The notes: a model not told the origin generated them from the sequence alone. 64,000 nucleotides of DNA from Bacteroidales bacterium (GCA_009777825.1 WRLA01000005.1:9286-73285), one strand, 5' to 3'; positions 6,300-62,668 are shown, numbered from the stretch's first letter. A program made the numbers and translations.

Positions 6300-7370
6300 A
6301 TGCAGATGAATAAAAAATTAATCAACGGAATACAGCAAATAGGCGTTGGCACGGACGATGCCGACCGCACCTTTCAATGGTATGCCGTCGTCATGGGCGC
6401 CGACATTCCCGTTTTTGAAGACAGCAACGAAGCCACCTACATGGCGCCTTACATGGGCGGAACGTCGCACAAGAAAAAAGCCATTCTGGCGGTAAATCTC
6501 CAAGGCGGCGGAGGCTACGAACACTGGCAATATCTTGACCGTCAACCCTCTTTCCCAAGCGAGGCGGTACGGATGGGCGACTTCGGAATCAACGTCGCAG
6601 CCATAAAATCGCAAAATATCGAACGTTCGTTTCAACGGATGAAAGGACTCGGCATAACGTTGCTCTCCGACATTGTTACCGCTCCCGACCAAAAACGGTG
6701 TTTTTACGTGCAAGATCCGTGGCGTAATATGTTGCAGGTCAAAGAGTCTTCCGAGTGGTTTCTGAAAGGGAAAAACGACGTGGGCGGCGTGTTCGGCTGC
6801 ATCATCGGCGTCTCCGACATCGAAAAATCGAAAAAACTCTACTCCGACATCTTAGAATATGACCAAGTGGTCTATGACCAAACGGGCACATTCGACGACT
6901 TGAACGGTTTGCCCAACGGAACAGGACGTTTCCGTCGTATCTTGCTTACACACAGCGCAGAGAGAAAAGGCGGCTTCGCCCCGCTCTTCGGAAAAAGTTA
7001 CATCGAACTGATACAATCCGTTGACAATCACGTGCCCAAAAAGATCTTCGCAGAGCGCTATTGGGGCGACGTTGGGTTTATCCACCTCTGTTTCGACATA
7101 CGCAACATCGCGGCAATGGTGCAAGAGTGCGCCGAAAAAGGATTCCCTTTCAAAGTGCGCAGTTCCGACTCGTTCGACATGGGCGAAGCCAACGGAAGTT
7201 GGGGCTACTTGGAAGACTGCGACGGCACTTTGATAGAAGTCGTGGAAACACACAAAGTGCCGATACTGAAAAAGTTAAACTGGTACATCCGCCTCAACAA
7301 AAGAGAGCCGCAGAAATCGTTGCCGAGGTGGGTGATTAAGGCGCTGAGATTCAAAAGGGTGAAAATTTAA
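6300..7370 (+). CDS. VOC (glyoxalase/bleomycin-resistance/dioxygenase) family protein, two-domain
   Basis: 356 aa. Duplicated beta-alpha-beta-beta-beta style segments (IQQIGVGTDD..., GCIIGVSDIEKSKKLY...). General family call only. Confidence 0.6.
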   Translation: MQMNKKLINGIQQIGVGTDDADRTFQWYAVVMGADIPVFEDSNEATYMAPYMGGTSHKKKAILAVNLQGGGGYEHWQYLDRQPSFPSEAVRMGDFGINVAAIKSQNIERSFQRMKGLGITLLSDIVTAPDQKRCFYVQDPWRNMLQVKESSEWFLKGKNDVGGVFGCIIGVSDIEKSKKLYSDILEYDQVVYDQTGTFDDLNGLPNGTGRFRRILLTHSAERKGGFAPLFGKSYIELIQSVDNHVPKKIFAERYWGDVGFIHLCFDIRNIAAMVQECAEKGFPFKVRSSDSFDMGEANGSWGYLEDCDGTLIEVVETHKVPILKKLNWYIRLNKREPQKSLPRWVIKALRFKRVKI

Positions 7371-7384
7371 CGTGTTCCATTGTA

Positions 7385-8071
7385 TTATCTTATCTCAAAA
7401 GTTTTCTGCCCCAGACAGAAACTTTTGTACCATACTTCTATCTTGTACCAGCCTGTGGGGTATTTGTTTTTTGCAGTTGTATTTTTCCAACATTCTTTAA
7501 ATTCTACCATGCCGTTGCCGGGTTTGATTTTTACTGTTTGGTTGGTACGTTCGTCCGGTTTGACAGAAAAGAGCGAAACGAATCTTCCGGGATAGTGAAT
7601 AATGATGTCGAACGGGATCTCTTTTTCTTCGTTCAACAGGCTGATATACTCAATTTTAAGTCGTAAGCGTTGCGCGTCGGTAAGAAATTTGCTGCTATAC
7701 GGATCGAGTTCCTTACACATATCATCAAAACCGCCTACTTGCATATTTTTTATAATTATAGGGTGTGTTTCTTGTATTTCTAATACGGCTTTCTCTAATT
7801 TGGAGTATGTTTCCAGTTTTTCGAAACATTCTTCGGTTTTTTTAAGATTTTCTTTGGCTTGCCCAAGTTCATTTTGGGCTTCCTGCAACTCTTTCTTTAC
7901 TATTTTTAAAGAATCCGTTTTGGTTTTTAAATCTGTTTTTAATTGGTCGGACGCATTAGATTTTATGGTAGTAGGGGAGGGGGGAGGCGTGATGGGATCT
8001 TCAACTCGTTGAGCCGATACGCTCATTATTAGCAACATCAGGCAGCCGAAAGTTAATACTTGCTTTTTCAT
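7385..8071 (-). CDS. secreted hypothetical protein (signal peptide, coiled-coil, beta-rich C-terminus); last gene of the T7SS-like operon
   Basis: N-terminus MKKQVLTFGCLMLLIMSVSAQ. Lies 31 nt downstream of the preceding kinase gene. Convergent with the VOC gene. Confidence 0.7.
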   Translation of the reverse strand: MKKQVLTFGCLMLLIMSVSAQRVEDPITPPPSPTTIKSNASDQLKTDLKTKTDSLKIVKKELQEAQNELGQAKENLKKTEECFEKLETYSKLEKAVLEIQETHPIIIKNMQVGGFDDMCKELDPYSSKFLTDAQRLRLKIEYISLLNEEKEIPFDIIIHYPGRFVSLFSVKPDERTNQTVKIKPGNGMVEFKECWKNTTAKNKYPTGWYKIEVWYKSFCLGQKTFEIR

Positions 8072-8102
8072 AAAAAAATCTATTTTGTTTTACTATATTT
8101 AT

Positions 8103-9689
8103 CTATTTTCTTTCAAAAACGCCATTTTTATAGGTTCCCTGTAATTTTCCGTTTTTCCAACGGTCTCCGTTATCCGGTCGTCCGTTTCTCCATGTTCCAC
8201 GATACATGGTGCTGTCTTTGTCGTTTTTTCTCCATTCGCCGAACACCGGTTGATCCTCTCGGTAACTGCCTGTAAATGTACTGCCGTCATCCTTAAAGGT
8301 ACGTTTGCAATCATTTCCGGATTTCAGTCCTTTTCTAAATCCCCCTTCATAAAAGGATTTATCTTTACCACAATGATAGTCTGCTTTTCCCTCAGTATCA
8401 TCGGGATAGCCTTTTTGCATGCGACCGGAATAGAGATAATAGGAACATTCGGTAGGGAGCGAATCCATTTTCAATAACGCGTCTAAATTATCAGGCAGGG
8501 AGTGGCTGACTTCTATGAGTATTGAATCGTTAATCGTTGTGTACCACATAGTTGTATCGAGTTCCCCCTGAGTGGGGCACAAATAGATATTTTCCTTATA
8601 TAAGCACACTTTCAATCCGTACACTCTTCCTCTGACCATGCTTCGTTTTGCATTTTCAATGACTTTGCTTTTTTTATCGTTTTTATCGCGGTTATGATAC
8701 CATTTCCATGTTATCAAGCCTCCTGCGAGCAGGATTACAACTCCGATAATAATGGCGATAATCCATTTTTTCGGGATTGTTCCTTTTTTGCCGGGAGCAG
8801 ATACTCTCCAATCTTTCAGTCCGGTGAGTGTAACCATTAGTTCTCCGACGTTCTGATAGCGTTCTTCCGGTTTTAATGCCATTGCTTTGAGTATGGTTTC
8901 GTTGGCGATGTCCGGCAGGTTGGAGGCAAGCGTTTTCGGCGCTTTCATCTCCTGGAGCAGCCGTGCGGCGGCGTCAAGGGGTTTTTTACCGGTAACGATG
9001 AAATAGAATACGGCGCCGAGAGAGTAAACATCGGAATAGAATCCTTTTTTCCCCACATTCGAGTATTGTTCTAACGGAGCATATCCTTTTGTTAAAATGG
9101 AGGTATGGCTTTGTGTTTTATCGTGGATAAATTCACGGGCGGAGCCGAAATCTATTAAGACGGCGGTATATTCCGGCGTGATCATGATGTTATCCGGCTT
9201 AACGTCGCGGTGAAGGATTCCTTGTTCGTGAATATGGTTGATGGCTTCGGCAATTTGCGCTACATAGTTCACGGATGTTTCGTAATCCAATTTTCCTTTT
9301 TTATCTACAAGTTTCTGTAATGTAATTCCTTCCACAAAGGGCATGACGATATAAGAGGTATCGTTTTCTTCAAAAACGTCTATTACCTTTACGATGTTGG
9401 GGTGTTTCAGTTTTGTTAAGGTTTGCGCTTCTTCTGTGAATTTGCGTTTATAATTGTCGTATTCTTCGTCGGTGATACCTTGCAGGTGCAGTTTGCTTGT
9501 TTGGGTGTTTCGCACGCAATAACCGCTTATAAAAAACTCCTTGATGGCATAATATTGATTCAAGGTAGCATGTTTGGCATAGTACGTGATACCAAATCCG
9601 CCCAAGCCCAGCACTTTTTCAATGATATATTTACCATTGTGCAAGGTTGTCCCTTTCGGCAGTTCCCGTGATTTGATCTCTTCGGTCAT
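8103..9689 (-). CDS. Hanks-type Ser/Thr protein kinase with one TM helix and C-terminal MORN-like repeats
   Basis: GLGGFGITYYAKH, YAIKEF, HRDVKPDNIM, DFGSAR, GYAPLEQ. TM WIIAIIIGVVILLAGGLITW. C-terminal Y-x-G-x-x-x-x-G repeats (YEGGFRKGLKSG.., YRGTWRNGRPDNG..). Confidence 0.9.
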   Translation of the reverse strand: MTEEIKSRELPKGTTLHNGKYIIEKVLGLGGFGITYYAKHATLNQYYAIKEFFISGYCVRNTQTSKLHLQGITDEEYDNYKRKFTEEAQTLTKLKHPNIVKVIDVFEENDTSYIVMPFVEGITLQKLVDKKGKLDYETSVNYVAQIAEAINHIHEQGILHRDVKPDNIMITPEYTAVLIDFGSAREFIHDKTQSHTSILTKGYAPLEQYSNVGKKGFYSDVYSLGAVFYFIVTGKKPLDAAARLLQEMKAPKTLASNLPDIANETILKAMALKPEERYQNVGELMVTLTGLKDWRVSAPGKKGTIPKKWIIAIIIGVVILLAGGLITWKWYHNRDKNDKKSKVIENAKRSMVRGRVYGLKVCLYKENIYLCPTQGELDTTMWYTTINDSILIEVSHSLPDNLDALLKMDSLPTECSYYLYSGRMQKGYPDDTEGKADYHCGKDKSFYEGGFRKGLKSGNDCKRTFKDDGSTFTGSYREDQPVFGEWRKNDKDSTMYRGTWRNGRPDNGDRWKNGKLQGTYKNGVFERK

Positions 9690-9714
9690 AATATAAGTTT
9701 TCTATTTATTGATA

Positions 9715-11055
9715 TTACCATCTAAAAATATATCCGAGTTTTACTTGAAGTTTATGCAGTTTGTGTTTATAGTTTTCCATTTTTGGTTCCCCTGTGTATT
9801 CGGTGATAGTCATACGGTCGGAAGACCAGTAGTTGTCATTCGCCAAATTGTTGAAACCCCAATCATACGAAATGCCGATGTTTAGTCCATATACTTCAAA
9901 AGCAGTTCCAAGGCTAAGACCGGCATTGATTCTGCTAAAAGGAGCATCCGAAAATGTATATTTATAGGTATTCTTAGTAACATTTGCCCCATTAAAGGTG
10001 GTTTGGACATCTCCGGTTGTTCCAAAAAGATTAATCTTTCCGTTATAATTATAACTCCAGGAATAATACGTTCCTGTGGGAGTATTATCGTTAATATTAT
10101 ATTCGGGGAAATAAGGATAGTCAACAGAACCTGTTATGTCGCACTTTCCTGCAATACCAATGCCTATATAGGGTCCCATGTTCACCTGTATATTGGATTT
10201 GTCTGTTAATTTGATGCGATATGAAAATAAAAGCGGGATTTCCAGATAATGCATCTTGTATTGTTCCAAGAAACTCTCGTAAACGGTTCCCATTACATAA
10301 GTGGTTGTTGTGTAGGGATTCACCCACATATATCCTCCGGAGTTATATATTTTTAGGTCATAAGAATTTTTAAAAGAATTTGTCATTTGGATATTGACAT
10401 AATTTAGCGCCATTTGTAAATAGAGATTTTTATGCAACCGGATATCGAGCAATATGCCGGCGCTGATTCCTATTTTGGAGGAGTAGGACGGTTTTTCCCA
10501 GTTGGTTTCAGTATTGTCATAACCGTAATCAGCAACGCTTCCGATAAAACGTCCCGATGTACTTGTCGCGAATTTTGGGACGACCATCCCCACCGAAAGT
10601 CCGAAAGAGACATCTCGCCCTTTAATGACATGATCACGCACCGGTGCCGGCGGCGGTGTCGGTGGCTTAGCAAGTTCCGTTTTAATCTTCTCGATTTCAG
10701 TTACGCAAGCCTTATGCTGTGCTTTAGCATATTCATCTTTCGAGTTCATTGATACAACTTGCTGATATTTGTTGGCAGCATTTTCATAATCTTTGTCCCG
10801 ATAATAGCCGTCAGCCATGGCTTTATTCGTTTGGCAGTCTTCCGCATTTTTGATTTGTACGGAAACATCTTGCCCCGAATTGCCTGAAAGGTATCGGTAG
10901 GCTTTGTAGTTCTCCAATGCGCATTCGTAATTGCCTTTGTCATAACAATTGTCTCCATCTTGTAAATACGTTTCGGGATTGATGTCTTGTGCTGATGCGG
11001 GATGAAACATCACACATATCCCGACTAAAATCCATAATTTAACTAAATGATTCAT
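9715..11055 (-). CDS. outer-membrane beta-barrel protein with N-terminal TPR-like repeats
   Basis: Signal peptide MNHLVKLWILVGICVMFHPASAQ. TPR-like DGDNCYDKGNYECALENYKAY and DGYYRDKDYENAANKYQQ. Pro linker KPPTPPPAP. Alternating beta pattern ending in LGYIFRW (terminal aromatic beta-signal). Confidence 0.7.
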   Translation of the reverse strand: MNHLVKLWILVGICVMFHPASAQDINPETYLQDGDNCYDKGNYECALENYKAYRYLSGNSGQDVSVQIKNAEDCQTNKAMADGYYRDKDYENAANKYQQVVSMNSKDEYAKAQHKACVTEIEKIKTELAKPPTPPPAPVRDHVIKGRDVSFGLSVGMVVPKFATSTSGRFIGSVADYGYDNTETNWEKPSYSSKIGISAGILLDIRLHKNLYLQMALNYVNIQMTNSFKNSYDLKIYNSGGYMWVNPYTTTTYVMGTVYESFLEQYKMHYLEIPLLFSYRIKLTDKSNIQVNMGPYIGIGIAGKCDITGSVDYPYFPEYNINDNTPTGTYYSWSYNYNGKINLFGTTGDVQTTFNGANVTKNTYKYTFSDAPFSRINAGLSLGTAFEVYGLNIGISYDWGFNNLANDNYWSSDRMTITEYTGEPKMENYKHKLHKLQVKLGYIFRW

Positions 11056-11069
11056 AACGATATATATTT

Positions 11070-12656
11070 TTAATTACACTTATCAAGCAATGTTCTGACT
11101 TCTTCGGTATCGTCCAATTTCTGAGCAAAAGTGAGTAATGCTTTTACATATTTATCATATCCTTTGTGTGGGACTAATCCTTTGGCGTGATTCAAAAAGC
11201 GATTATAGCCTGTTTTGTCGGACGGGCTTATCGATTGCAGTTGTTTATACAAGTCAAAGGCTTTTTGATATTGTGCGGAGGCGAAAGCCTCGTTAGCCAT
11301 TGATAATAACTCAAGCGCCGAATGAACCGGTTCTTGGTTTTCAGGCTCAATGACTATCTCCTGTTCTATTTGTTTCTGGTCCTGGATACCCTGTCTCCGC
11401 CAATATTCCGGATCGGATGTAATATCCTCCTGTCCGGCTGGTTTGGTATTTTCCTTTTTTGTATTATTTTCCTTTTTTTCCGGTGTGGTGTTTTCTACTT
11501 TTATGACAGGTATTGCCGGCGCTGTTTCCGTTTTTTCGGGTTGTACTATTTTGTTTTCTTCGATTATGGGCGCGGGGAGCGAATCTACCGGCGCGGGTTC
11601 TTTTTGCATGTTATTTTCCGGCGTTACATCCGGTTTTTCGGTTTCTACCACAACCGGCGCCGGTTCTTTGGTAATCATCGGAAGGATATCCATGTATTTT
11701 ATCATCAAAAAAATTCCTGAAGCCACAATCATCGCGCCGAGGAGTAGCCATATCCAGAGTGTTTTTCTTCTCTTTTTGGTTTGCTTTTGGTCGTTTCCGA
11801 GTAAAACGTCCATGAACTCGGAAGCCGTTTGATAGCGTTCTTCCGGTTTGAGTTGCATGGCTTTCATGATGGTAGTGTTTGCCTCTTCGGGTATGTTTGG
11901 CTCTAATTCTTTCGGCGACGGCATGTTGTTCATGTTTCTCTCAACGGCGTCCATCGGTTTTTCTCCTGTCAGAACGAAGTAGAAGACGGCGCCCAAGGAG
12001 TAAATGTCGGAGTAGGAGCCTTTTTTGCTTATTACGGAATATTGTTCTAAGGGGGCATATCCTTTGGTTAAGACGGAGGTATGGCTTTGTGTTTTGTCGT
12101 GGACAAATTCGCGGGCGGAGCCGAAATCTATCAAAACGGCGGTATAGTCCGGCGTAATGATAATGTTATCCGGTTTGATATCGCGGTGTAAGATGCCTTT
12201 TGCATGAATATAGCTCATTGCTTCGGCGATTTGCGCTACATAGTTAACGGCGATGTCATAATCCAATTTTCCTTCTGTTTCAACAAGTTTTTGAAGGGTT
12301 GGTCCTTCTATGAACGGCATGACCATGTAAAAGGTGTTGTTTTCGTTAAAAACGTCCACAACTTTCACAATATTAGGATGTTCCATCTTTGCCAGCGTTC
12401 GCGATTCTTCTATAAATTTTTTCTTGAAATTATTGAAATCGTCTTCTTTAATGCCTTGTAAAAGAATTTTGCTTGTCTGTGTATTTCGCATACAATGCCC
12501 GCTGATGAAAAACTCTTTGATGGCATAATAACGCTGCAAGGTGGCATGGCGGGCATAATAGGTAATGCCAAACCCGCCCATTCCGAGTACTCTTTCGATA
12601 ATATATTTACCGTTATAAAGTGTTTTTCCTGCCGACAATTCTCGTACTCCGCTCAT
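11070..12656 (-). CDS. Hanks-type Ser/Thr protein kinase with a TM helix, P/E-rich linker and TPR-like C-terminal domain
   Basis: GMGGFGITYYARH, YAIKEF, HRDIKPDNII, DFGSAR, GYAPLEQ. TM LWIWLLLGAMIVASGIFLMI. Kinase domain is a close paralog of 8103..9689. Confidence 0.9.
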   Translation of the reverse strand: MSGVRELSAGKTLYNGKYIIERVLGMGGFGITYYARHATLQRYYAIKEFFISGHCMRNTQTSKILLQGIKEDDFNNFKKKFIEESRTLAKMEHPNIVKVVDVFNENNTFYMVMPFIEGPTLQKLVETEGKLDYDIAVNYVAQIAEAMSYIHAKGILHRDIKPDNIIITPDYTAVLIDFGSAREFVHDKTQSHTSVLTKGYAPLEQYSVISKKGSYSDIYSLGAVFYFVLTGEKPMDAVERNMNNMPSPKELEPNIPEEANTTIMKAMQLKPEERYQTASEFMDVLLGNDQKQTKKRRKTLWIWLLLGAMIVASGIFLMIKYMDILPMITKEPAPVVVETEKPDVTPENNMQKEPAPVDSLPAPIIEENKIVQPEKTETAPAIPVIKVENTTPEKKENNTKKENTKPAGQEDITSDPEYWRRQGIQDQKQIEQEIVIEPENQEPVHSALELLSMANEAFASAQYQKAFDLYKQLQSISPSDKTGYNRFLNHAKGLVPHKGYDKYVKALLTFAQKLDDTEEVRTLLDKCN

Positions 12657-12664
12657 ATCTTGTA

Positions 12665-13930
12665 TTATTTTTTTATCAGACTAAGGATATAATAGGTTAT
12701 CAACATTGTTATAAGCCCCAACGCCGTTCGCCAGACGTATTGCCAGATTTTCCCCCACGGGAACGGTTTTTTCTCTTTTTTGACTTTCTGCGTTTTAACG
12801 TCCGTCTTTACAATAGACTGGTCGGGCAGATAGTTTTTCCACGGCAAGGTCGTATTGCCTATTCTTACGATGTCGGTCGAGTTCAAAGAGACCTCTTCGC
12901 CGCTGGTTATTCTTTTCCCGTTTACGAAAGTTCCGTTTTTGGTGTGTAAATCAATGAGCGTGGCTTTTCCCGCGTCGTCAAAAATCATTTGCAGATGTTG
13001 ACGTCCCACAAATGAATCATTGATAACAATATCGTTGTTAATATCGCGTCCGATGGAGATTATTTTCATATCTTTTGCGTTTTTGACTTTTTTTGTGTTT
13101 TTTGTATTTTTTTCCTCTTTTTTACTTAATTTCAATAAATCCTCTTTAAACTCTTTACAGGATTGGTATCTTTCGCTTCCCCGTTTCTGCAATGCCCGTT
13201 CGACAATGGGTTGATACTTCGGATTTACATCGGAATAGAAATCGGCTGCTACGGGGGTGGCGTTGTTGCAGATTTTCTCGAAGGTATCGGTGTGGTTGAC
13301 GCCCGAAAAGGGCAATTTCCCGGTAATCACATTGAAAAAGGTAACGCCCAAGGCAAATATATCGGTATAACGCCCTAACTGTTCCTTATTGATTTGTTCG
13401 GGCGCCATGAACGCCGGACTGCCGCATTTTTTCAAATTGTTGCTCTTGTCGTTTACCTTGGCGGAGATGCCCATGTCCAGGATTTTGATATTCCAATTTT
13501 TCAAAACCATGATGTTGCCGGGCTTGATGTCTAAATGCAGAATTTCGTTTTGGTGCAGATAGTCAATGGTGTCCAATATTTGGCAAAACAACGGGATGAC
13601 CGTTTCATCGCTCATCGGAACGGTTCTCGTGTTGAGGTAAACGTCCAACGGCGTGCCGTTCACAAACTCCATAATCAGATAGAACTTGTCTCTGTCTTCG
13701 ACAAACTCTACCAACTTGACAATGTTGGGATGCGACAGATAGAGATAGTGGTTGGCTTCTTCCCGAAAGCGCTCCATTATAAAATCGTCTTTCGCCCGAC
13801 TGGGAAACAGCGCCTTGATAGCGACTTCATACCCGCTGCGCAAATCTACGCCGCGATATACTGCCGCCGTGCCGCCGGATTCTATCAGGCTGTCAACGTG
13901 ATAATGGGGGATTTTGGGAAGAAGGTTCAT
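12665..13930 (-). CDS. divergent Ser/Thr kinase fused to an FHA domain with a C-terminal TM anchor
   Basis: VAIKAL, HLDIKPGNIM (non-RD), DMGISAK (DMG instead of DFG), AFMAPEQ. FHA region: IGRDINNDIVINDSFVGRQHLQMIF...DLHTKNGTFVNG. TM LGLITMLITYYILSLI. Confidence 0.85.
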   Translation of the reverse strand: MNLLPKIPHYHVDSLIESGGTAAVYRGVDLRSGYEVAIKALFPSRAKDDFIMERFREEANHYLYLSHPNIVKLVEFVEDRDKFYLIMEFVNGTPLDVYLNTRTVPMSDETVIPLFCQILDTIDYLHQNEILHLDIKPGNIMVLKNWNIKILDMGISAKVNDKSNNLKKCGSPAFMAPEQINKEQLGRYTDIFALGVTFFNVITGKLPFSGVNHTDTFEKICNNATPVAADFYSDVNPKYQPIVERALQKRGSERYQSCKEFKEDLLKLSKKEEKNTKNTKKVKNAKDMKIISIGRDINNDIVINDSFVGRQHLQMIFDDAGKATLIDLHTKNGTFVNGKRITSGEEVSLNSTDIVRIGNTTLPWKNYLPDQSIVKTDVKTQKVKKEKKPFPWGKIWQYVWRTALGLITMLITYYILSLIKK

Positions 13931-15024
13931 TTTTTCTCATTTGTATTATTTAGTCTTGTAATCCTTGCGCTCAATTCGCTTATTTTCTTGGTTTTCAGAA
14001 GTTTGTATTTGTCAAAGTTCTCAGGTTTCTTGCCGTTTTTCACAAGTATGTCGGTTATTTTAATAATCTTTTCAGCGATTATTTTAAAGTTTCCCTTACT
14101 TTCCTCGCTTGGCTTGTCCTCTGTCAGATACTTAAGTGCATCTTTGCAAAGGGATAGCGTTTCTTTAATATTTTCCTGAGAATAAACGGAATCAATAGCA
14201 ATACAATCGTTCATCATTATAGTAAAAGCCTCGTTTTTCAATCTCTCTTGTTGTTGCAAGAGGCTATCCTTTGCCGGTTTTTTTAATTGTGGTACAATTC
14301 TTTGCATCTCGTTCAACTTTCCATCATAATAAGCCAAAGTATCCTGACACGGCGATTTAGGTTTTGCCGTTGGTTGCGCAATCGCAGCCGCCTGCTCTTT
14401 TTTGAACTGCTCGTACTCTTTTTTGTTACTCACGCCTTCGATGCCCGCGATGGATATATCGTCCTTATCAAAGACGCGCACTTCAAAAAGCACGGAATCA
14501 ACTTTGGGTCTGTTGTCTTTAAAATATTTCTGAGCGGCAGCAATACACTCCTCCTTTGCACGATACTCTTTGCTCATGGGTTGTAGCACATCGTTTTTGA
14601 AATATTGATGGTAGTAATAGTACTCCTTAACCTCTTCACTCCCTTTTTTTGAGCCGTTGTTGTTACACGCGTAAATCTTTACGGTTGTGGCTTCGGGATA
14701 AAGCGTGTTGAATGTTGGTTTATTCTTGCAAGGTATCGTCTTTGTGTTTGCCATCAATATCCAATTGATGTTTTGAATGGTTTTTGTCTCTCTGCCACTG
14801 GGGCGGGTCAACTCCATTTCATAATTGGCTTCTTTGCCGGTGTATTGACTGCGAAGCGATGCTTCGGCTTTGTCGAGTTCACTGGATAGATTGTAAGTAT
14901 TACCATAAACAACCCCGCCCGAAGGATAAACCTGGGTGATCTTAATCGCGAAACTGCTTTGTGCTTGTATCTGTAGCGAAAACAGAACAAAAATCATAAT
15001 GCTAAAAAGGTGTTTTTTTGTCAT
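13927..15024 (-). CDS. secreted hypothetical protein (signal peptide), function unknown
   Basis: MTKKHLFSIMIFVLFSLQIQAQ. 4-nt overlap with the downstream kinase start and a 1-nt gap to the PP2C gene upstream. Confidence 0.7.
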   Translation of the reverse strand: MTKKHLFSIMIFVLFSLQIQAQSSFAIKITQVYPSGGVVYGNTYNLSSELDKAEASLRSQYTGKEANYEMELTRPSGRETKTIQNINWILMANTKTIPCKNKPTFNTLYPEATTVKIYACNNNGSKKGSEEVKEYYYYHQYFKNDVLQPMSKEYRAKEECIAAAQKYFKDNRPKVDSVLFEVRVFDKDDISIAGIEGVSNKKEYEQFKKEQAAAIAQPTAKPKSPCQDTLAYYDGKLNEMQRIVPQLKKPAKDSLLQQQERLKNEAFTIMMNDCIAIDSVYSQENIKETLSLCKDALKYLTEDKPSEESKGNFKIIAEKIIKITDILVKNGKKPENFDKYKLLKTKKISELSARITRLNNTNEKK

Positions 15025-15025
15025 A

Positions 15026-16240
15026 TTATTTACTATATTTTTGGTCTTTTTTATATCTTATGTGTTCTTTACCAGGTGTATATTCAAAATGAGTTATTTC
15101 ACCAGTATTTTTTTTAATAATCTTTATTTCACCCACCTCGTAATCATCATTTTCATGAACCCATAAGGCAGGAATGTCTTGATTATATTCTGGTTTTGTA
15201 CTAAAAATCCTTTTCCCCTTTATCTCTGCAATCTGTATATACCCAAGTTCTTTCACCGCTTTTTTCCATTCCGGCTCCTCATATACCTGAACATCACCCG
15301 TTTGTGTAACATTCGTCTCCGTTTTCTCCGTTGCGGGATGTAACCATAGAAACACACCTGCCGTAGCAGCAATCAGCAAGACAACGATAGCCGCAATCAG
15401 CATGATACCGCGTTTATTACTTTTTTTGCTATTACTGTTCCGACTCGGTAACGAATTTTTACATTCAAACACCGACTGTGCATGTGGACTATTGCTGACC
15501 TGTACCAACTGAATCGTAATATTATCTTTTCCGCCTGCCTGTTTTGCAAAAGTAAGCATATTTTCGCCTTTTTCCGTCAGTGGCGTTTTTTGTGTCAGGA
15601 TGTGCTGAATGATTTCGTCATTGACCATGCTTGTCAAGCCGTCGCTGCATACTAAGAACACATCTCCTTTGGCGGGGAGGACGGGCATGGTGCAGACATC
15701 GGGCTGTATCGTTTTTTGTATGCCGAGCGTTTTTAGTATTCTGTTTCTGTTGGGATGACCTTCGGCTTCGGCTTCGGTGATGATTCCCTGGTCAACCAAT
15801 CCCTGTACGATGGAGTGGTCTTTGGTGAGACGACACAACTGTTGCTGTTTGTTGCAAAAGAGGTAAATCCGGCTGTCGCCGATATGGGCAAACCATGCCT
15901 TGTCGTCTCTTATGAGAAGTACACATGCGGTCGTTCCCATTCCTTTCAGTTCGGGATTTTCGTTTGCCGTTTGCAAAATTTGTTTGTTGGCATAGCCCAA
16001 AGCATCTTCCATGGCTTGGTGAATCACCGCGTATCGTTCTTTGGTAAAGAAGTTGACCATGCTGTTCACGGCTATGGCGGAGGCTTTGGCACCGCCGACG
16101 TGTCCGCCCATGCCGTCGCAAACGACAAAGAGAAAGCCATTCGGCGTCTCGGCAGCATAACAGTTATCTTCGTTAGCCTGCCTGACCAATCCTACGTCGG
16201 TTACCGAAAATACATCTTTATTAAAATCTATCAAATTCAT
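15026..16240 (-). CDS. PP2C-family Ser/Thr phosphatase with a TM helix and a small extracytoplasmic domain
   Basis: RQANEDN, VCDGMGGH, GMGTT, HIGDSRIY, VCSDGL, GGKDNIT. TM IMLIAAIVVLLIAATAGVFLWL. Confidence 0.9.
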   Translation of the reverse strand: MNLIDFNKDVFSVTDVGLVRQANEDNCYAAETPNGFLFVVCDGMGGHVGGAKASAIAVNSMVNFFTKERYAVIHQAMEDALGYANKQILQTANENPELKGMGTTACVLLIRDDKAWFAHIGDSRIYLFCNKQQQLCRLTKDHSIVQGLVDQGIITEAEAEGHPNRNRILKTLGIQKTIQPDVCTMPVLPAKGDVFLVCSDGLTSMVNDEIIQHILTQKTPLTEKGENMLTFAKQAGGKDNITIQLVQVSNSPHAQSVFECKNSLPSRNSNSKKSNKRGIMLIAAIVVLLIAATAGVFLWLHPATEKTETNVTQTGDVQVYEEPEWKKAVKELGYIQIAEIKGKRIFSTKPEYNQDIPALWVHENDDYEVGEIKIIKKNTGEITHFEYTPGKEHIRYKKDQKYSK

Positions 16241-16250
16241 AATCTGTGCT

Positions 16251-17798
16251 TTACAAGTAAAATTTAATCGCTACTTCGCCTAATTGAATGACGTCCGAAC
16301 TCTTCAACTCTGCGCTTTCAATATACTCTCCGTTGACAATGATGCCGTTGGAGGAGTTCAAATCATAGATCTCGAAACAGACGCCGTTAAACACTATTTG
16401 TGCGTGATGTTTGCTTACCGTCGGGTCGGCAATCACAACGTCGTTGTCGTCTCCTCTGCCGAGGGTGGAGGTCGCATTGCCGATATGGTAGATGACGCCG
16501 TCGTTGACGGAGATTAAACGCGGCAGTAAGTTCTTGGTGTGCATCAGTTGGGTGAGGCGTTCTTCCTGTTCCTCTTCCTGCGCCTGTTTCTTTTCCTGTT
16601 CGGCGGCTCTTTGCCGGCGTTGAAACTCGTCCTGGGTGGCGCTCAGTTTGCGTTTCAAACTCTCCTGCTCTGCCGACAGTTGGGCTTTCTGACGCTCGTC
16701 CTGTTGTTTCCGGGCTGCCTTACGGTTTTTTCTTCTTCTGAAAAATCTAATAGCGAAGATTATGCCAAAGGTGATAAGTGCAACTGTTACCATCAACACA
16801 ATCAACGACACGATTAAATATCTTCTAAAACAGTCCTTTACCCAGCCAATGAACGAGAACTCCGGCGTTTTATAGGGCATGATGTTGTAATCCGTTCCCT
16901 TGGAATTTAACACCAAGGGGTACGAAGCGCCATCTCTTTTTAACGACGAGACAAATGTTATCTTATAATCTTGCCCGTAATGACGACGGTTGAGGTCGTT
17001 GAAACGGCTTAACAGCGTGCCTCGCGTCGCCTCCGAACTGCCGTCGGAGAGGATAAATTGCCCATAAGTCTCTTGGGACATATAGGCAATGACCGAGTAA
17101 TTGTCACTCTTCGATAATGGGTAATAGACCGTGTAAACCGGAATCTTATTCAGCAACGCCTGATTGACAATCGGCGACATCTCCACATCGGGAACATACT
17201 GCCCGGCGGTGATGACAAAAATAGCCCGCGTGTTACTCTTCGGCTCTTTCTCTATCAAATCCAACCCCTCCTTCACCGCCAAAAACAAATCGGACTTGTC
17301 GGGTTTGTTCGGATAAGAGACGGTGCCAAGCCGGTAGTCCGAATATTGCGCAAGAGCGGTTTGCAACACCTCTTTATCGGAAGTAAACTCCTGCAAACGC
17401 CCCTTTAACGCCGGCTCGTCGCCCTGCTTGCGGTTAAAGACGGCGATGTTGAACATCGTCGTTTTATCCGAAACCACATCTTCCTTGAAGAAATAGTACA
17501 GCAACTCCGCCGCAAAAGCAAATTGATCTTGACGGTTAGGCTGATACTCCCACAAAAAAAGAACGCTCTTGTTCCGCTCCGGAATATCCGCCAACACGTT
17601 CTCACATCTGAATGCCACCTCCGCTCCATTCTCTTTTAGCGAAAACTGATTGGGATGGAGCGGCTCAGGATTGTACTCGTTCCAAATAAACGAGACCTCA
17701 GGAAAATACTGCATCTCTATATCCCCCCGCAAACTACCCTGCTGGGCGTAAACGGAAAAACTGATAAACACTATAAGAAGTGATAGAAAATGTTTCAT
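16251..17798 (-). CDS. bitopic membrane protein: signal peptide, ~310-aa exoplasmic domain, TM, charged coiled-coil, cytoplasmic C-terminal FHA domain
   Basis: MKHFLSLLIVFISFSVYAQ. TM YLIVSLIVLMVTVALITFGIIFAI. R/K/E/Q-rich stretch. FHA region: LGRGDDNDVVIADPTVSKHHAQIVF...DLNSSNGIIVNG. Confidence 0.85.
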   Translation of the reverse strand: MKHFLSLLIVFISFSVYAQQGSLRGDIEMQYFPEVSFIWNEYNPEPLHPNQFSLKENGAEVAFRCENVLADIPERNKSVLFLWEYQPNRQDQFAFAAELLYYFFKEDVVSDKTTMFNIAVFNRKQGDEPALKGRLQEFTSDKEVLQTALAQYSDYRLGTVSYPNKPDKSDLFLAVKEGLDLIEKEPKSNTRAIFVITAGQYVPDVEMSPIVNQALLNKIPVYTVYYPLSKSDNYSVIAYMSQETYGQFILSDGSSEATRGTLLSRFNDLNRRHYGQDYKITFVSSLKRDGASYPLVLNSKGTDYNIMPYKTPEFSFIGWVKDCFRRYLIVSLIVLMVTVALITFGIIFAIRFFRRRKNRKAARKQQDERQKAQLSAEQESLKRKLSATQDEFQRRQRAAEQEKKQAQEEEQEERLTQLMHTKNLLPRLISVNDGVIYHIGNATSTLGRGDDNDVVIADPTVSKHHAQIVFNGVCFEIYDLNSSNGIIVNGEYIESAELKSSDVIQLGEVAIKFYL

Positions 17799-17807
17799 AG
17801 ACTGTGT

Positions 17808-18026
17808 TTACATTAACGAACGAATCACTCTTTCTACATTCTCAAATGTGCCGGCAGTCCCCTCCATTGCGGATACAAAAGAGTTATAGTCGCTACGAAT
17901 CACAGCGATATGCTCACCGAAGAATTGTTTTTTTACTTCATCTTGCCACGTGGCGTCTGCCTGAGAAATATAACTATTCTCCAAAACAGACTTGCTTTCC
18001 ATTAATTCTGAAATTTTGGCTCTCAT
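17808..18026 (-). CDS. 72-aa helical protein carrying a half W-x-D module (ATWQDEVKKQFFGEH)
   Basis: ORF spaced 9 nt from the downstream gene. Shares the WQDEV..F motif with the ~90-aa family. Confidence 0.6.
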   Translation of the reverse strand: MRAKISELMESKSVLENSYISQADATWQDEVKKQFFGEHIAVIRSDYNSFVSAMEGTAGTFENVERVIRSLM

Positions 18027-18046
18027 ATCATCATCTTTATATGTTA

Positions 18047-18538
18047 TTAACTTTTACTTTCCTTAGGGATGGCATCTATACTTGCCGTTTCATTTGCCGA
18101 ACTTGCATATTCCGACAAATGCTGAATTATTCTGTCCAACTCTTTCATCGTTTCTGTTTTTACCATATTCAATGAGTTGACATATCTGCTTTCAGAACTC
18201 TTATAGGTAGAAAAAGCATTAGCAAGACGAGACATTTCCGATTTGTAGCGTGCATAATCTGCCTGTGCTTGCGACAAAGCCCGTTCCTGATACGCACAAG
18301 AGCGCCTGAACTCCGGCGGATCCATTGCCTTAGCTATCTCACACGACCTTAACGCTTGTGCTGCTACTTCTACTCTGTGTCTAAAAAGGTTCTCTAAACT
18401 TGCCAATTCTTCCATCTTGCGGGAAAGCAGCGAGGTGAAACCTTGTGAAATTTCCATATTTCTGCCACAATACTGCGGCAGAGCCTGATATAGGGATTGG
18501 AGAATCCCTATATCATGAACGTTGCCTTTTGTACTCAT
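18047..18538 (-). CDS. 163-aa all-helical hypothetical protein (possible chaperone/adaptor)
   Basis: ORF spaced 4 nt from the upstream gene. No recognisable motif. Heptad-like helical composition. Confidence 0.6.
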   Translation of the reverse strand: MSTKGNVHDIGILQSLYQALPQYCGRNMEISQGFTSLLSRKMEELASLENLFRHRVEVAAQALRSCEIAKAMDPPEFRRSCAYQERALSQAQADYARYKSEMSRLANAFSTYKSSESRYVNSLNMVKTETMKELDRIIQHLSEYASSANETASIDAIPKESKS

Positions 18539-25975: not shown

Positions 25976-26260
25976 ATGGTATTACCAATTACAGTATATG
26001 ATACCATCTTTTGCGCCAAAAATGTGGACTTCCACGCCGAGATAGAGGGATTAAGCCCCGATCCGGGCAGTCTGAAATGGTTTATTGACGGCGTAGAAGA
26101 AACCGATGCGCAGGATATGTTGGACTGGAGCAAAGAGTTTGAGACCGGCGTATATGAAATTAAAATGGAAGTGGTTTATGCGAATAATACGACTGCAACG
26201 ATAACCGGCACGCTGAAAGTTGAGGTTTTCTGGATTAAGATGAAGAATATTACGCATTGA
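25976..26260 (+). pseudogene. 94-aa ORF, probable fragment of a larger surface protein (Ig/PKD-like beta region)
   Basis: No promoter box or signal peptide. The sequence reads like an internal or C-terminal beta-sandwich segment. It sits at the island border next to short repeats. Confidence 0.3.
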
Positions 26261-60775: not shown

Positions 60776-62668
60776 CTATTTCACCACCAATTTTTGCGTC
60801 GCCATAGCGTTTCCTGTGCGGACGGTTACGAAATAGACGCCGGCAGCCATGTTGTTGAGCGGGATTATCTTCTCCTTTTCGATGTTTTCGGCGTGGTACA
60901 CTGTTTGTCCGATCATGTTGTAGAGCGTGATATTTCCTTTTCCGTCGAATGTTACGGTTGCCTGTCCCGATGCGGGATTGGGTATGACGCGCAGCGCTAA
61001 TGGGTTGCTTTCGATAGTTTCAATAGCAAATGGATCCCAACATTCAACATAAAAGTGATAAAAATAGTTGTCTGTCGGATCGTGTTTACAAACAGGAGAT
61101 GTTCCCGAAGTTATATAAGTTCCCGGAAACATATCAACTTGCGCCATCAGGTGCATTCGGTTGCCGTCTATGCCTGCCAATGTCAGGTATGCAAATTCAT
61201 TATCAATGATGTTAACATTATTTACAAGATGTTCTGTTTGCCGCCAGGTCATTCCTCCATCCGCAGTGGAGGTATAGAACGGGTGATGGTAGTCGCTATG
61301 CCCGTTTAGCAATCCGAGATAAGTCAAATGCAGTTGATTATCAAGGTCAAATGCCATTTGAGGGAACGAGAATGCGTCTCCGATGCCATAACACATTGGG
61401 GATAAAAACGTTTCGTGGTCTATGTAAAAATAATGGTCATCTCTCATCGGTATGAAATATCCGATAATGGGCAACTGTGGAACGGTAGAGATGACATACA
61501 GTTTTTCTTCGTCTGAGCGTTCCCAGTCGAAATAATCAAGCACTATGGGTTCTATTACATCTTTACTGTAATTGGCTTCGCCGTCAATCGGCGCCATGTC
61601 TTCGTTCCAGTAGGAGAGGAAGGTGGATGTGAATCCCGAGAAAAAGGCTACCAAACCTTCTTCTTCGCTATTGGCAGCCATCACCACCGAGAAGGCGACG
61701 TGGATTTTCCCATAGAGATCTAATGCTATACATCCTTGTGCGGGAATATAGGCGGCGTCGGCATATTCGGAAGGGTCAATGTAAGGTCCGACGGGCGTGT
61801 CGAAGAACCTGATGCTCTCCCATGTTTCGCCGTTATCGCGCGACCTCAACACATAGCCATCGCTTCCAAAGTCTATAAACGCGCAGGCAACGGTATTGCC
61901 TTGATTAGCAAAAGTGATTCCGTCGCGATATTTACTGTGTGCATCCCACTCTTGTCCAACCATTTCGGGAACTAATGCGCTTTCAATGTCCCATGTCAAG
62001 CCGCCATCTTGGGTTCTGTAATAAAGCACGGGATTGTAATATCCTTTATATTGCTGACTTTCGGGCAATGCCATCGGCGACATGATGTGGAGGTATTCAT
62101 GATTGGGTCCGCTGGTGGTCATCCGCGCACAAGCCATGACGTAGCCGGCATCGGGCGAAGTTCCTTCGGGATAGGGAACGGAGATGATATTCCATTCGCC
62201 TTCACCTCTGTTTTCACGGGTAAGGAGTACCAAGCCGTTTACAATTGGCACGCCGTTGTGTTCGTAGGTGTCGGCGCTTTTAGCGAGAACGGCTTCGCCG
62301 CTTTTTCCCCATTGCGCATACGAGGGATTATACAGTGGTATTCCGCCTATTCTGTTTTCTTGTTTTTCTTCATCGTCCGGATTCCAACTCCATGTAAATC
62401 CTCCGTCCGTTGAATAAGAGTAGGCGACGCCCCGATTAGGGATGACGCTCCCCGAAAATTCCGGATTGTCATCCGTTGTCCATGTACAGCCGATAAAACC
62501 ATCGTCATGCAACGTGGTCATCGGGTAAACAGCATTTTGACTCTGACGGTCATAACTTTTCGAAATTCCGGCAGACTTCCATCCGCCAACATCAAGAAAG
62601 CGTTTTTCCTGCGCTACGACAGGCGTCATCAAACCTGCCATTAGCATACATAATAATACTTTTTTCAT
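60776..62668 (-). CDS. BNR/Asp-box repeat (sialidase-fold) protein with a T9SS C-terminal sorting domain
   Basis: Asp-boxes STDGGFTW, TQDGGLTW, SRDNGETW, STADGGMTW. C-terminus IPNPASGQATVTF...GVYFVTVRTGNAMATQKLVVK is a type-A Por secretion tail. Confidence 0.85.
   Translation of the reverse strand: MKKVLLCMLMAGLMTPVVAQEKRFLDVGGWKSAGISKSYDRQSQNAVYPMTTLHDDGFIGCTWTTDDNPEFSGSVIPNRGVAYSYSTDGGFTWSWNPDDEEKQENRIGGIPLYNPSYAQWGKSGEAVLAKSADTYEHNGVPIVNGLVLLTRENRGEGEWNIISVPYPEGTSPDAGYVMACARMTTSGPNHEYLHIMSPMALPESQQYKGYYNPVLYYRTQDGGLTWDIESALVPEMVGQEWDAHSKYRDGITFANQGNTVACAFIDFGSDGYVLRSRDNGETWESIRFFDTPVGPYIDPSEYADAAYIPAQGCIALDLYGKIHVAFSVVMAANSEEEGLVAFFSGFTSTFLSYWNEDMAPIDGEANYSKDVIEPIVLDYFDWERSDEEKLYVISTVPQLPIIGYFIPMRDDHYFYIDHETFLSPMCYGIGDAFSFPQMAFDLDNQLHLTYLGLLNGHSDYHHPFYTSTADGGMTWRQTEHLVNNVNIIDNEFAYLTLAGIDGNRMHLMAQVDMFPGTYITSGTSPVCKHDPTDNYFYHFYVECWDPFAIETIESNPLALRVIPNPASGQATVTFDGKGNITLYNMIGQTVYHAENIEKEKIIPLNNMAAGVYFVTVRTGNAMATQKLVVK

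Follow-up and report, generated by a model that had tools for sequence, protein, structure and literature searches.

Threonine-phosphorylation genes inside a type VII-like operon of Bacteroidales: a candidate checkpoint on the export ATPase of a diderm

Control of a secretion machine by Thr phosphorylation has been described for the T6SS (type VI secretion system) of Pseudomonas, Agrobacterium and Serratia, which relies on the PpkA/PppA/Fha1-TagH pathway. PpkA has an extracellular VWA sensor (PMC3224232), and binding of Fha to a phospho-Thr of TssL activates secretion (PMC3953482). A comparable set of genes lies in a 64,000-nucleotide stretch of DNA from a Bacteroidales bacterium (GCA_009777825.1 WRLA01000005.1:9286-73285; hereafter “the window”), where three Hanks-type kinases (kinases 1, 2 and 3), a PP2C/PPM phosphatase and three FHA proteins share an operon with an FtsK/SpoIIIE-type ATPase and small WXG100-superfamily proteins that carry a W-x-D motif (Table 1). 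On balance, the comparisons described here lean towards a Thr-phosphorylation checkpoint of the PpkA/PppA/Fha type acting on a type VII-like export ATPase of a diderm, as an earlier, sequence-only reading of the window had proposed. As in the T6SS pathway, a membrane Hanks kinase, a PP2C phosphatase and an FHA reader are encoded in a secretion locus; kinases 1 and 2 are nearest to PpkA, the PP2C matches PppA, and a VWA fold faces the periplasm. There are also differences. The machine here consists of an FtsK-type ATPase with WXG100-like substrates, and no Pfam match to the T6SS core genes (TssB/C, Hcp, VgrG, TssM/L) was found in the operon or in the surveyed genes of the window. The PP2C is membrane-anchored, kinases and FHA proteins number three each, one kinase being a non-RD enzyme with an FHA domain fused to it, and the VWA domain belongs to an FHA protein rather than to a kinase, the kinase-transmembrane (TM)-VWA architecture of PpkA not being encountered. 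At the level of the components, the analogy with the T6SS is stronger than the sequence-only reading could know; the gating itself is deduced from gene context.

A parallel in gene content also comes from the Gram-positive type VII secretion systems (T7SS) c to j. In these T7SSc-j loci, EssC-like ATPase and WXG100 genes occur alongside a membrane Ser/Thr kinase whose active site is conserved (TscD, TsdD, TseD), a PPM phosphatase (TscF, TseF, TsfF), FHA proteins (TseJ, TsfJ) and a vWA protein, and phospho-regulation was proposed, but not tested, by Garrett, Palmer et al. 2024 (PMC11217815). The operon in the window shares the clustering of ATPase and WXG100 genes with kinase, PPM, FHA and vWA proteins. 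However, the hosts of the T7SSc-j are monoderms (Bacillota and Actinomycetota), the ATPases there are bound to the membrane, often with FHA domains of their own, and most of these systems have the ubiquitin-like protein TsxB, whereas the present operon comes from a diderm, has a soluble ATPase and encodes periplasmic and outer-membrane proteins, and no ubiquitin-like protein was recognised. In the T7SSb, EssB/YukC and EssC/YukB likewise bring a TM kinase fold and an FHA domain together at the cytoplasmic face of a T7-type ATPase (for the contact, see PMC9600267). EssB, though, is a true pseudokinase that has lost its catalytic motifs and does not bind ATP; in the window, catalytic residues are kept in three kinases and accompanied by a PP2C.

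The ATPase and its small partner have been noted before in Gram-negative bacteria. Zhang et al. 2012 described “mobile versions of T7SS” in which a solo WXG protein is paired with a YueA-like ATPase of three FtsK domains, only the middle one active, and a footnote in the same paper lists bacteroidetes, planctomycetes and others as carriers (PMC3482391). Helicobacter pylori HP0062, which is encoded in a cluster with an FtsK-like gene, carries the hairpin motif W-R-D (PMC3397514). The present locus resembles these mobile systems in its identical ATPase architecture, in W-x-D small proteins most similar to HP0062, and in the occurrence of relatives in bacteroidetes and planctomycetes. It differs in that the published descriptions mention no kinase, PP2C or FHA protein, a link that is found here in one Bacteroidales clade and, independently, in one further locus (L009). 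An ATP-binding cassette (ABC) exporter of Mycobacterium tuberculosis, Rv1747, is controlled through its FHA domains by the Hanks kinase PknF. One relative of the cassette described below (L094) includes an ABC exporter with two FHA domains; the ATPase class in the window is a different one, and its FHA domains are on separate proteins. Two elements are thus already published, the kinase/PPM/FHA/vWA set in Gram-positive T7 clusters (PMC11217815) and the Gram-negative ATPase/WXG pair (2012). Literature searches found no description of a kinase/PP2C/FHA-linked T7-like system in Bacteroidales, nor any of PpkA-like receptor kinases, a non-RD kinase-FHA fusion and a VWA-TM-FHA protein in such a system, or of a secretion block inserted in a cassette shared with an ABC exporter.

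From position 25834 down to 7385 every gene lies on the minus strand, no intergenic gap exceeds 43 bp and several genes overlap. A sigma-70 promoter/terminator scan is uninformative for Bacteroidota promoters and was used solely to look for strong internal minus-strand terminators, of which none inside the array was convincing. Given the shared strand, the short gaps and this negative result, the array is one operon of ~18.4 kb and 18 genes. The signalling genes are therefore embedded, as had been claimed, in the same minus-strand operon as the ATPase, the W-x-D genes and the toxin-like fusions. No further kinase, PP2C or FHA match occurs in the 64-kb window beyond the operon, which, together with the synteny in other genomes, makes a chance cluster implausible.

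The kinase, PP2C and FHA matches fall where the sequence-only reading had placed them (Table 1), and hydropathy, the basis of all TM assignments given here, detects one hydrophobic helix in each kinase and in the PP2C, in agreement with its statement that all four are membrane-anchored. By topology, the catalytic and FHA domains are cytoplasmic, and the variable domains lie on the other side of the membrane. Kinases 1 and 2 are paralogues with 64% identity over the cytoplasmic part and are unrelated outside the membrane, which they cross at residues 309-327 and 301-319, respectively. Both carry the motifs YAIK, HRD, KPDN, DFG and APLE, which qualify them as Hanks-type kinases, and a conserved Thr-rich activation loop, DKTQ(S/N)HT. 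When compared with solved structures, they are nearest to the N-terminal kinase domain of PpkA (5hnv, 1.7e-42), which is nine orders of magnitude ahead of StkP and PknB (~1e-33). A kinase is conserved at the kinase-2 position in the relatives L001, L003, L172 and L174. The sequence-only reading had also proposed that different extracytoplasmic sensor domains feed into the circuit. The two kinase ectodomains are unrelated to each other; the assignment of these domains is weak, with sub-threshold matches to MORN (E=0.011, kinase 1) and TPR (E=0.03, kinase 2) and no domain match for the extracytoplasmic tail of the PP2C.

The phosphatase itself is complete. It scores 254.9 bits against NCBIfam NF033484 (the Stp1/IreP PP2C family; curated cut-off 230), and it aligns over all the catalytic motifs, RxxNED, DGMGGH, GDSR, SDGL and DNIT, with tPphA (5iti), Stp1, PstP and PppA; the match to the T6SS phosphatase PppA (6jkv) reaches 2.6e-29. 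Its helix spans residues 279-297. With the Lys, Glu, Asp, Asn and Asp of the kinases and the motifs of the PP2C all intact, the three kinases and the phosphatase look active, as far as sequence can tell.

Kinase 3 had been singled out as atypical, possibly a pseudokinase or scaffold fused directly to an FHA domain. The atypical features are confirmed: HLD replaces HRD, DMG replaces DFG, and the FHA domain is on the same chain, followed by a C-terminal anchor helix (residues 402-420). The pseudokinase suggestion fares less well. The protein has VAIK, E58, HLD, KPGN, DMG and APE, qualifies as a Hanks-type kinase, and departs from the consensus at three points only, lacking the HRD Arg, the DFG Phe and the first Gly of the P-loop; its nearest structure is PknB/Stk1-like (4eqm, 7e-41). 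The catalytic residues, whose conservation the sequence-only reading had named for checking, are all intact, and Lys39, Glu58, Asp134, Asn139, Asp152 and the APE motif are invariant among orthologues. HLD is kept in the kinase encoded after the PP2C in every version of the cassette, and the distant copies in L093, L094 and L096 combine HLD with DFG and keep the catalytic residues. The activation loop of these HLD kinases, in the window and in L093, L094 and L096, lacks Thr. An EssB/YukC-like pseudokinase was considered for kinase 3 and is not supported, Lys/Asp/Asn/Asp being intact in orthologues and in the distant cassettes. Because HLD is conserved, the catalytic residues are kept and the activation loop has no Thr, kinase 3 carries a non-RD signature and reads as a conserved non-RD kinase, presumably free of activation-loop phosphorylation control and not an evident pseudokinase. 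The missing first P-loop Gly may lower its activity. In L174 the kinase-FHA gene (7027-8268) is called as two open reading frames (ORFs), one for a 277-aa kinase and one for a 129-aa FHA protein; either the gene is truly split there, or a frameshift or an error of assembly is the cause.

The three FHA proteins differ in architecture. The VWA-TM-FHA protein has its helix at residues 332-350. An AlphaFold2 (AF2) model built on 30 homologues (pLDDT 84) gives the periplasmic part a VWA fold, for which Foldseek returns the VWA domain of inter-alpha-inhibitor heavy chain ITIH1 (1.5e-10), with TFIIH p44 and the integrin beta-I domain as further matches; EmbR, GarA and FhaA superpose on the FHA part at 1.0-1.5 A root-mean-square deviation. 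On reading the VWA sequence, no DxSxS motif of a metal-ion-dependent adhesion site (MIDAS) was found. The small Zn-FHA protein is soluble, with an N-terminal Cys-rich, zinc-ribbon-like motif. Its alignment shows invariant C7, C20, C23, T45 (in T-Q-[VI]-I) and K58-T59, and T45 and T59 lie in the linker. The residues of the FHA fold (PF00498) that canonically contact phospho-Thr are GR, SxxH and NG. In the window, the VWA-TM-FHA protein has the full triad (GR, SKHH, SNG), although the Arg of GR is replaced in three of six aligned orthologues. The FHA domain of kinase 3 has Gly for the Ser of SxxH, both in the window and in L001, with Ser in L003. In the Zn-FHA protein of the window GQ stands for GR and HG for NG; the Arg is kept in five of six aligned orthologues, and the Asn in the four more distant ones. 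All three domains have the FHA fold and most orthologues are canonical, with the full phospho-Thr triad in one of the three window copies.

The ATPase, 923 aa long, has three P-loop domains, of which the middle one (GGRPGYGKT, DEF) is intact and the outer two are degenerate, and is predicted to be soluble, with neither a TM helix nor an FHA domain. Its top NCBIfam models are EssC, EccCa and EccCb. Membership in the curated EssC/EccC family fails, since the EssC score (1.6e-32, 112 bits) is far below the cut-off of 778 and there is no membrane anchor; identity to EssC is ~28% and covers just one domain. A profile built from the small W-x-D proteins matches, in the PDB, H. pylori HP0062 (5.6e-13), Bacillus anthracis EsxB (5.3e-11) and Staphylococcus aureus EsxA (1.3e-6), and orthologues have precomputed PF06013 matches, which places the family in the WXG100 superfamily. 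The hairpin motif is W-x-D(E) in all members rather than W-x-G, as in HP0062. The family spans Bacteroidales to Planctomycetota (there “TWRDQEQ.KF”) and shares a conserved motif at the C-terminus, E-[EQD]-Y-L, which may serve as an export signal. Two larger proteins share an N-terminal domain of ~90 aa, which gives mutual phmmer matches with the small proteins, and have unrelated C-termini; orthologous loci carry other cargo, for example a Phospholipase-like protein. A W-x-D domain joined to variable C-termini fits a polymorphic toxin architecture. No family was found for the C-terminal regions of the 318-aa and 539-aa fusions in Pfam, NCBIfam or PDB sequence searches, and no obvious immunity gene was recognised. 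A LAS/M15-like peptidase was considered for the 318-aa cargo C-terminus, given an STH...D...H pattern, and was discarded for want of Pfam or PDB support. The 539-aa protein includes a long stretch of repeats in which Lys, Asp, Gly and Thr abound.

Gene order was compared in relatives. About 93 ATPase homologues were found at 37% identity or more, and the named ones are metagenome-assembled genomes of Bacteroidales (Candidatus Azobacteroides, Prevotellaceae, Muribaculaceae, Paludibacteraceae), with one termite gut metagenome and one buffalo omasum sample. The recurring order is Zn-FHA, ATPase, a ~200-aa protein, WXG-like genes, cargo, a small protein, VWA-TM-FHA, PP2C, an unknown protein, kinase-FHA and kinase. 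It was found in every Bacteroidales relative with enough sequence, over 37-80% ATPase identity: L001, L002 and L011 (68%), L003 (49%), L005 and L006 (45%, where the sequence ends before the kinase genes), L172 (37%) and L174, on the contig of a 76% relative, which further has kinase 2, the outer-membrane protein, kinase 1, a 237-aa protein and OmpA. The Zn-FHA gene lies upstream of the ATPase, mostly within ~35 bp, in L001-L006, L171 and L172, and is still seen on the short contigs L004 and L171; L012 gives one FHA match. Half of the 24 best VWA-TM-FHA homologues are on contigs exactly as long as contigs with an ATPase homologue. The flanks vary by lineage, and include a ClpB-like gene, OLD/UvrD (L003), a transporter, an integrase (upstream, in L171), PDDEXK (L172) and an acyl-CoA dehydrogenase. 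Because the flanking genes differ in every lineage, the operon moves as a whole unit. The sequence-only reading had staked its case in advance on the signalling genes being linked to the ATPase and W-x-D genes in other genomes, and this linkage holds across the Bacteroidales clade.

The signalling genes also occur without the T7-like genes. A metagenome scan centred on kinase 3 returned unrelated Hanks kinases in ~70 of 80 loci, the informative ones being L091-L098, L103 and L107 only. Three of these, the freshwater loci L093, L094 and L096, have Zn-FHA, VWA-TM-FHA, PP2C and the HLD kinase in the order of the window, with no FtsK ATPase or WXG gene, and three more (L098, L103, L107) are looser clusters of kinase, PP2C and FHA genes. 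In L094 (4853-19134) the surrounding genes encode further kinases and FHA proteins, an FHA-M48 peptidase, a LEA_2 protein, and an ABC exporter whose N-terminal part holds two FHA domains. The Zn-FHA gene adjoins the VWA-TM-FHA gene in L093, L094 and L096, and what separates the two in the Bacteroidales operon is exactly the 7.4-kb block formed by the ATPase, WXG and cargo genes. Since this block separates genes that are adjacent elsewhere, the secretion genes sit inside a portable signalling cassette, which consists of Zn-FHA, VWA-TM-FHA, a membrane PP2C, a non-RD kinase-FHA-tail anchor and one or two PpkA-like receptor kinases, and which occurs with two different classes of export ATPase.

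These features suggest how the checkpoint might operate. Periplasmic or envelope cues would reach the PpkA-like kinases 1 and 2 through their differing ectodomains and lead to autophosphorylation on the DKTQ(S/N)HT loop. Together with a constitutive, non-RD kinase 3, these kinases would phosphorylate Thr residues of cytoplasmic partners, the best candidate acceptors being two invariant linker residues, T45 and T59, of the Zn-FHA protein, whose gene lies beside that of the ATPase. The phospho-Thr would be read by FHA domains, with the canonical domain of the VWA-TM-FHA protein as the strongest candidate reader. The ATPase has no TM helix and no FHA domain, unlike EssC, and so needs a membrane partner; it may be recruited or licensed at the inner membrane through the VWA-TM-FHA protein and the tail-anchored kinase-FHA protein, which would permit export of W-x-D cargo. 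The membrane PP2C would reset the switch.

Table 1. Coordinates of the features of the operon and its surroundings, in positions of the window
Feature	Position	Strand	Match or remark
Convergent gene	6300-7370		After last operon gene
Exported 228-aa protein, last operon gene	7385-8071	-	Signal-peptide-like N-terminus
Kinase 1, PpkA-like RD receptor kinase: kinase, TM helix, weak MORN-like ectodomain	8103-9689	-	Pkinase E=1.7e-42
Signal peptide, TPR-like region, outer-membrane beta-barrel; between kinases 1 and 2	9715-11055	-	OMP_b-brl_2 8.5e-13
Kinase 2, PpkA-like RD receptor kinase: kinase, TM helix, Pro/Glu-rich spacer, weak TPR-like domain	11070-12656	-	Pkinase 2.3e-44
Kinase 3, non-RD Hanks kinase, FHA, C-terminal tail anchor	12665-13930	-	Pkinase 1.2e-54, FHA 3.9e-18
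Exported 365-aa protein (signal peptide), unknown fold	13927-15024	-	Between PP2C and kinase 3
PP2C/PPM Ser/Thr phosphatase: TM helix, ~107-aa extracytoplasmic tail	15026-16240	-	PP2C_2 2.6e-15, PP2C 1.2e-11
VWA-TM-FHA bitopic protein: signal peptide, periplasmic VWA fold, TM helix, long coiled coil, cytoplasmic FHA	16251-17798	-	FHA 9.3e-19
Small conserved helical protein, 72 aa, W-Q-D-E motif, directly upstream of VWA-TM-FHA gene	17808-18026	-	Previously unlisted ORF
Small conserved helical protein, 163 aa	18047-18538	-	
Small W-x-D protein, 87 aa	18543-18806	-	WXG100-superfamily
Small W-x-D protein, 90 aa	18837-19109	-	WXG100-superfamily
W-x-D fusion, 539 aa	19153-20772	-	N-terminal W-x-D domain, variable C-terminal region
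W-x-D fusion, 318 aa	20779-21735	-	N-terminal W-x-D domain, variable C-terminal region
Coiled-coil protein, 218 aa (~200 aa in relatives), always after ATPase	21748-22404	-	phmmer matches L001-L006, L011, L012
FtsK/SpoIIIE-type ATPase, 923 aa, EssC/EccC-like	22404-25175	-	FtsK_SpoIIIE 9.1e-26
Small Zn-FHA protein, first operon gene	25208-25834	-	FHA 9.8e-18
Protein with Por_Secre_tail domain (type IX secretion C-terminal sorting)	60776-62668	-	

Other operon genes were also traced in relatives. The 365-aa exported protein has phmmer matches in L001-L006, L011 and L091 and is absent from L093, L094 and L096, which confines it to T7-like loci; neither it nor the 218-aa coiled-coil protein matches a Pfam family. 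At the position of the 72-aa ORF, 71-aa genes occur in L003, L005 and L174, and in the L001 gene call it is fused to the FHA protein. L174 has its 237-aa gene at the position of the last operon gene. The outer-membrane barrel family numbers 12 homologues only, one of them at the same position in L174 and another unlinked in L173. The barrel was considered as a universal conduit and rejected, being confined to near relatives of the window; it is a possible outer-membrane component in the window's subclade. The rest of the window is Bacteroidota housekeeping (serine hydroxymethyltransferase, ribonucleotide reductase, ribosomal protein S1, AsmA) together with a protein sorted by the type IX secretion system; its Por_Secre_tail domain confirms a Bacteroidota host that also has the type IX secretion pathway. 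The GC fraction is 0.37-0.47 in the operon (window positions 8000-26000) versus 0.51-0.53 in the flanks at 4-6 kb and 26-30 kb, and the low operon GC and the differing flanks among genomes are consistent with a mobile island.

Three other ATPase loci have different surroundings. L007 (1-22718) and L008 (1-22889) lack both the phosphorylation module and recognisable W-x-D genes; the neighbours are DUF87, AAA and Band_7 genes in L007, and MORN-repeat proteins and an FtsK_gamma protein in L008. L009 (1-22541) pairs an ATPase ~40% identical to the Planctomycetota type with a WXG100 gene. Around them lie genes for two kinases, of which one is fused to FGE-sulfatase, for a PP2C, and for four FHA proteins, with fusions to ankyrin or trypsin domains, whose architectures are unlike those in the window. 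This looks like an independent recruitment of Thr-phosphorylation signalling.

Several observations weigh against a checkpoint on the ATPase. A scan of species-representative genomes gave at least 558 ATPase relatives, and 80 loci were kept, mostly Planctomycetota. Profile searches of 75 loci (1.19 Mb), again mostly Planctomycetota, found no FHA domain, one PP2C and kinases in seven loci, a rate of one kinase per ~150 kb that is taken to be background; the W-x-D small protein is encoded beside the ATPase in 60 of the 75, all outside Bacteroidales. The module is also absent from two other ATPase subfamilies of Bacteroidales (L007 and L008/L013/L014/L022). Because these loci and subfamilies go without it, the module is an accessory gained by one clade and not essential to the ATPase/WXG machine. 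Two of the three FHA domains in the window deviate from the canonical triad (R to Q and N to H in Zn-FHA, S to G in kinase 3), and some FHA contacts may therefore be phospho-independent. Thr381, Thr553 and Thr887 of the ATPase were examined as clade-specific phospho-acceptors and rejected, being shared with the sister ATPase P0092, which lacks the module. The ectodomain assignments are weak, gating is read from gene context and sequence only, and both secretion and the passage of cargo over the outer membrane are putative.

The deviant FHA domains bear most directly on a first alternative, in which the FHA and kinase-fold proteins mainly form a phospho-independent scaffold that tethers the ATPase to the membrane, phosphorylation being secondary or vestigial. 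The ATPase lacks a TM helix and an FHA domain, and kinase fold, FHA and TM helix are supplied in trans, on one chain in the case of kinase 3; two of the three FHA domains miss a canonical phospho-Thr contact residue, and kinase 3 is non-RD, without the first P-loop Gly or an activation-loop Thr. There is also a precedent, since the FHA region of YukB copurifies with the pseudokinase domain of YukC (PMC9600267). It is nevertheless rather unlikely that scaffolding is the main role, given that every catalytic residue is kept in all three kinases over large evolutionary distances, that the FHA domain of the VWA-TM-FHA protein is fully canonical in the window, and that an intact membrane-anchored PP2C, sensible only if phosphorylation cycles, is always present. 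The scaffold and the switch are compatible and not mutually exclusive.

Other explanations detach the signalling genes from the ATPase, or the ATPase from secretion. The existence of the cassette in L093, L094 and L096 without an FtsK ATPase or WXG gene, and of the looser clusters in L098, L103 and L107, is what would be expected of a general envelope or stress signalling cassette that is merely co-located and has its targets elsewhere, in the cell wall or in transport; vWA/Ser/Thr protein kinase/FHA/PP2C operons with other roles are found in Deinococcus (preprint 10.64898/2026.01.23.701218). Mere co-location is nonetheless improbable. The Bacteroidales ATPase/WXG/cargo block sits within the cassette, with Zn-FHA on one side and VWA-TM-FHA on the other, the unit moves as a whole into different chromosomal contexts, the 365-aa exported protein is confined to the T7-like version, and even the non-T7 cassette adjoins an export ATPase with FHA domains. 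Least probable is that the locus has nothing to do with secretion and serves instead in intracellular conflict or anti-phage defence, infection being sensed by the kinases and abortive infection brought about by an FtsK/HerA-type ATPase and toxins. PADLOC does match the kinases to mad6 and PD-T4-6 and the ATPase weakly to SspH, mad8 and HerA, OLD/UvrD lies beside the L003 locus, and the sister ATPase of L007 is found among DUF87 and AAA genes. These PADLOC matches are to generic kinase-fold and P-loop regions, however; five of ten proteins have none, and the PP2C has one weak match to a candidate system. The small proteins belong to the secreted WXG100 superfamily, the large ones combine an N-terminal trafficking domain with a variable C-terminus in the manner of exported polymorphic toxins (PMC3482391), and five operon proteins have signal peptides or periplasmic or outer-membrane domains.

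A phosphorylation checkpoint on the export ATPase remains the preferred explanation, and a bolder version of it may be put forward tentatively. The cassette could be a portable, phospho-gated membrane docking platform for export ATPases, with the VWA-TM-FHA and kinase-FHA proteins as its inner-membrane part. If this is true, the platform supplies the FHA domains, the membrane anchor and the kinase fold that EssC and EssB supply in Firmicutes, and the same platform drives the FHA-ABC exporter elsewhere, so that one phospho-switch serves interchangeable ATPases. Type VII-like secretion in Gram-negative gut bacteria would then include a new architectural class.

To our knowledge, the known contact-dependent weapons of these Bacteroidales are T6SSiii systems and secreted toxins. 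A T7-like operon of ATPase, WXG and polymorphic-toxin genes that carries a Thr-phosphorylation circuit of its own would be a further system of antagonism in gut communities, and would be a case of a T7-like machine in a diderm that is gated post-translationally. The module offers a handle, in the form of kinase-dead, phosphatase-dead and FHA alleles, on an unstudied T7-like toxin system of diderm gut bacteria. The occurrence of the cassette with an FHA-ABC exporter as well suggests a general, transferable control logic for export ATPases.

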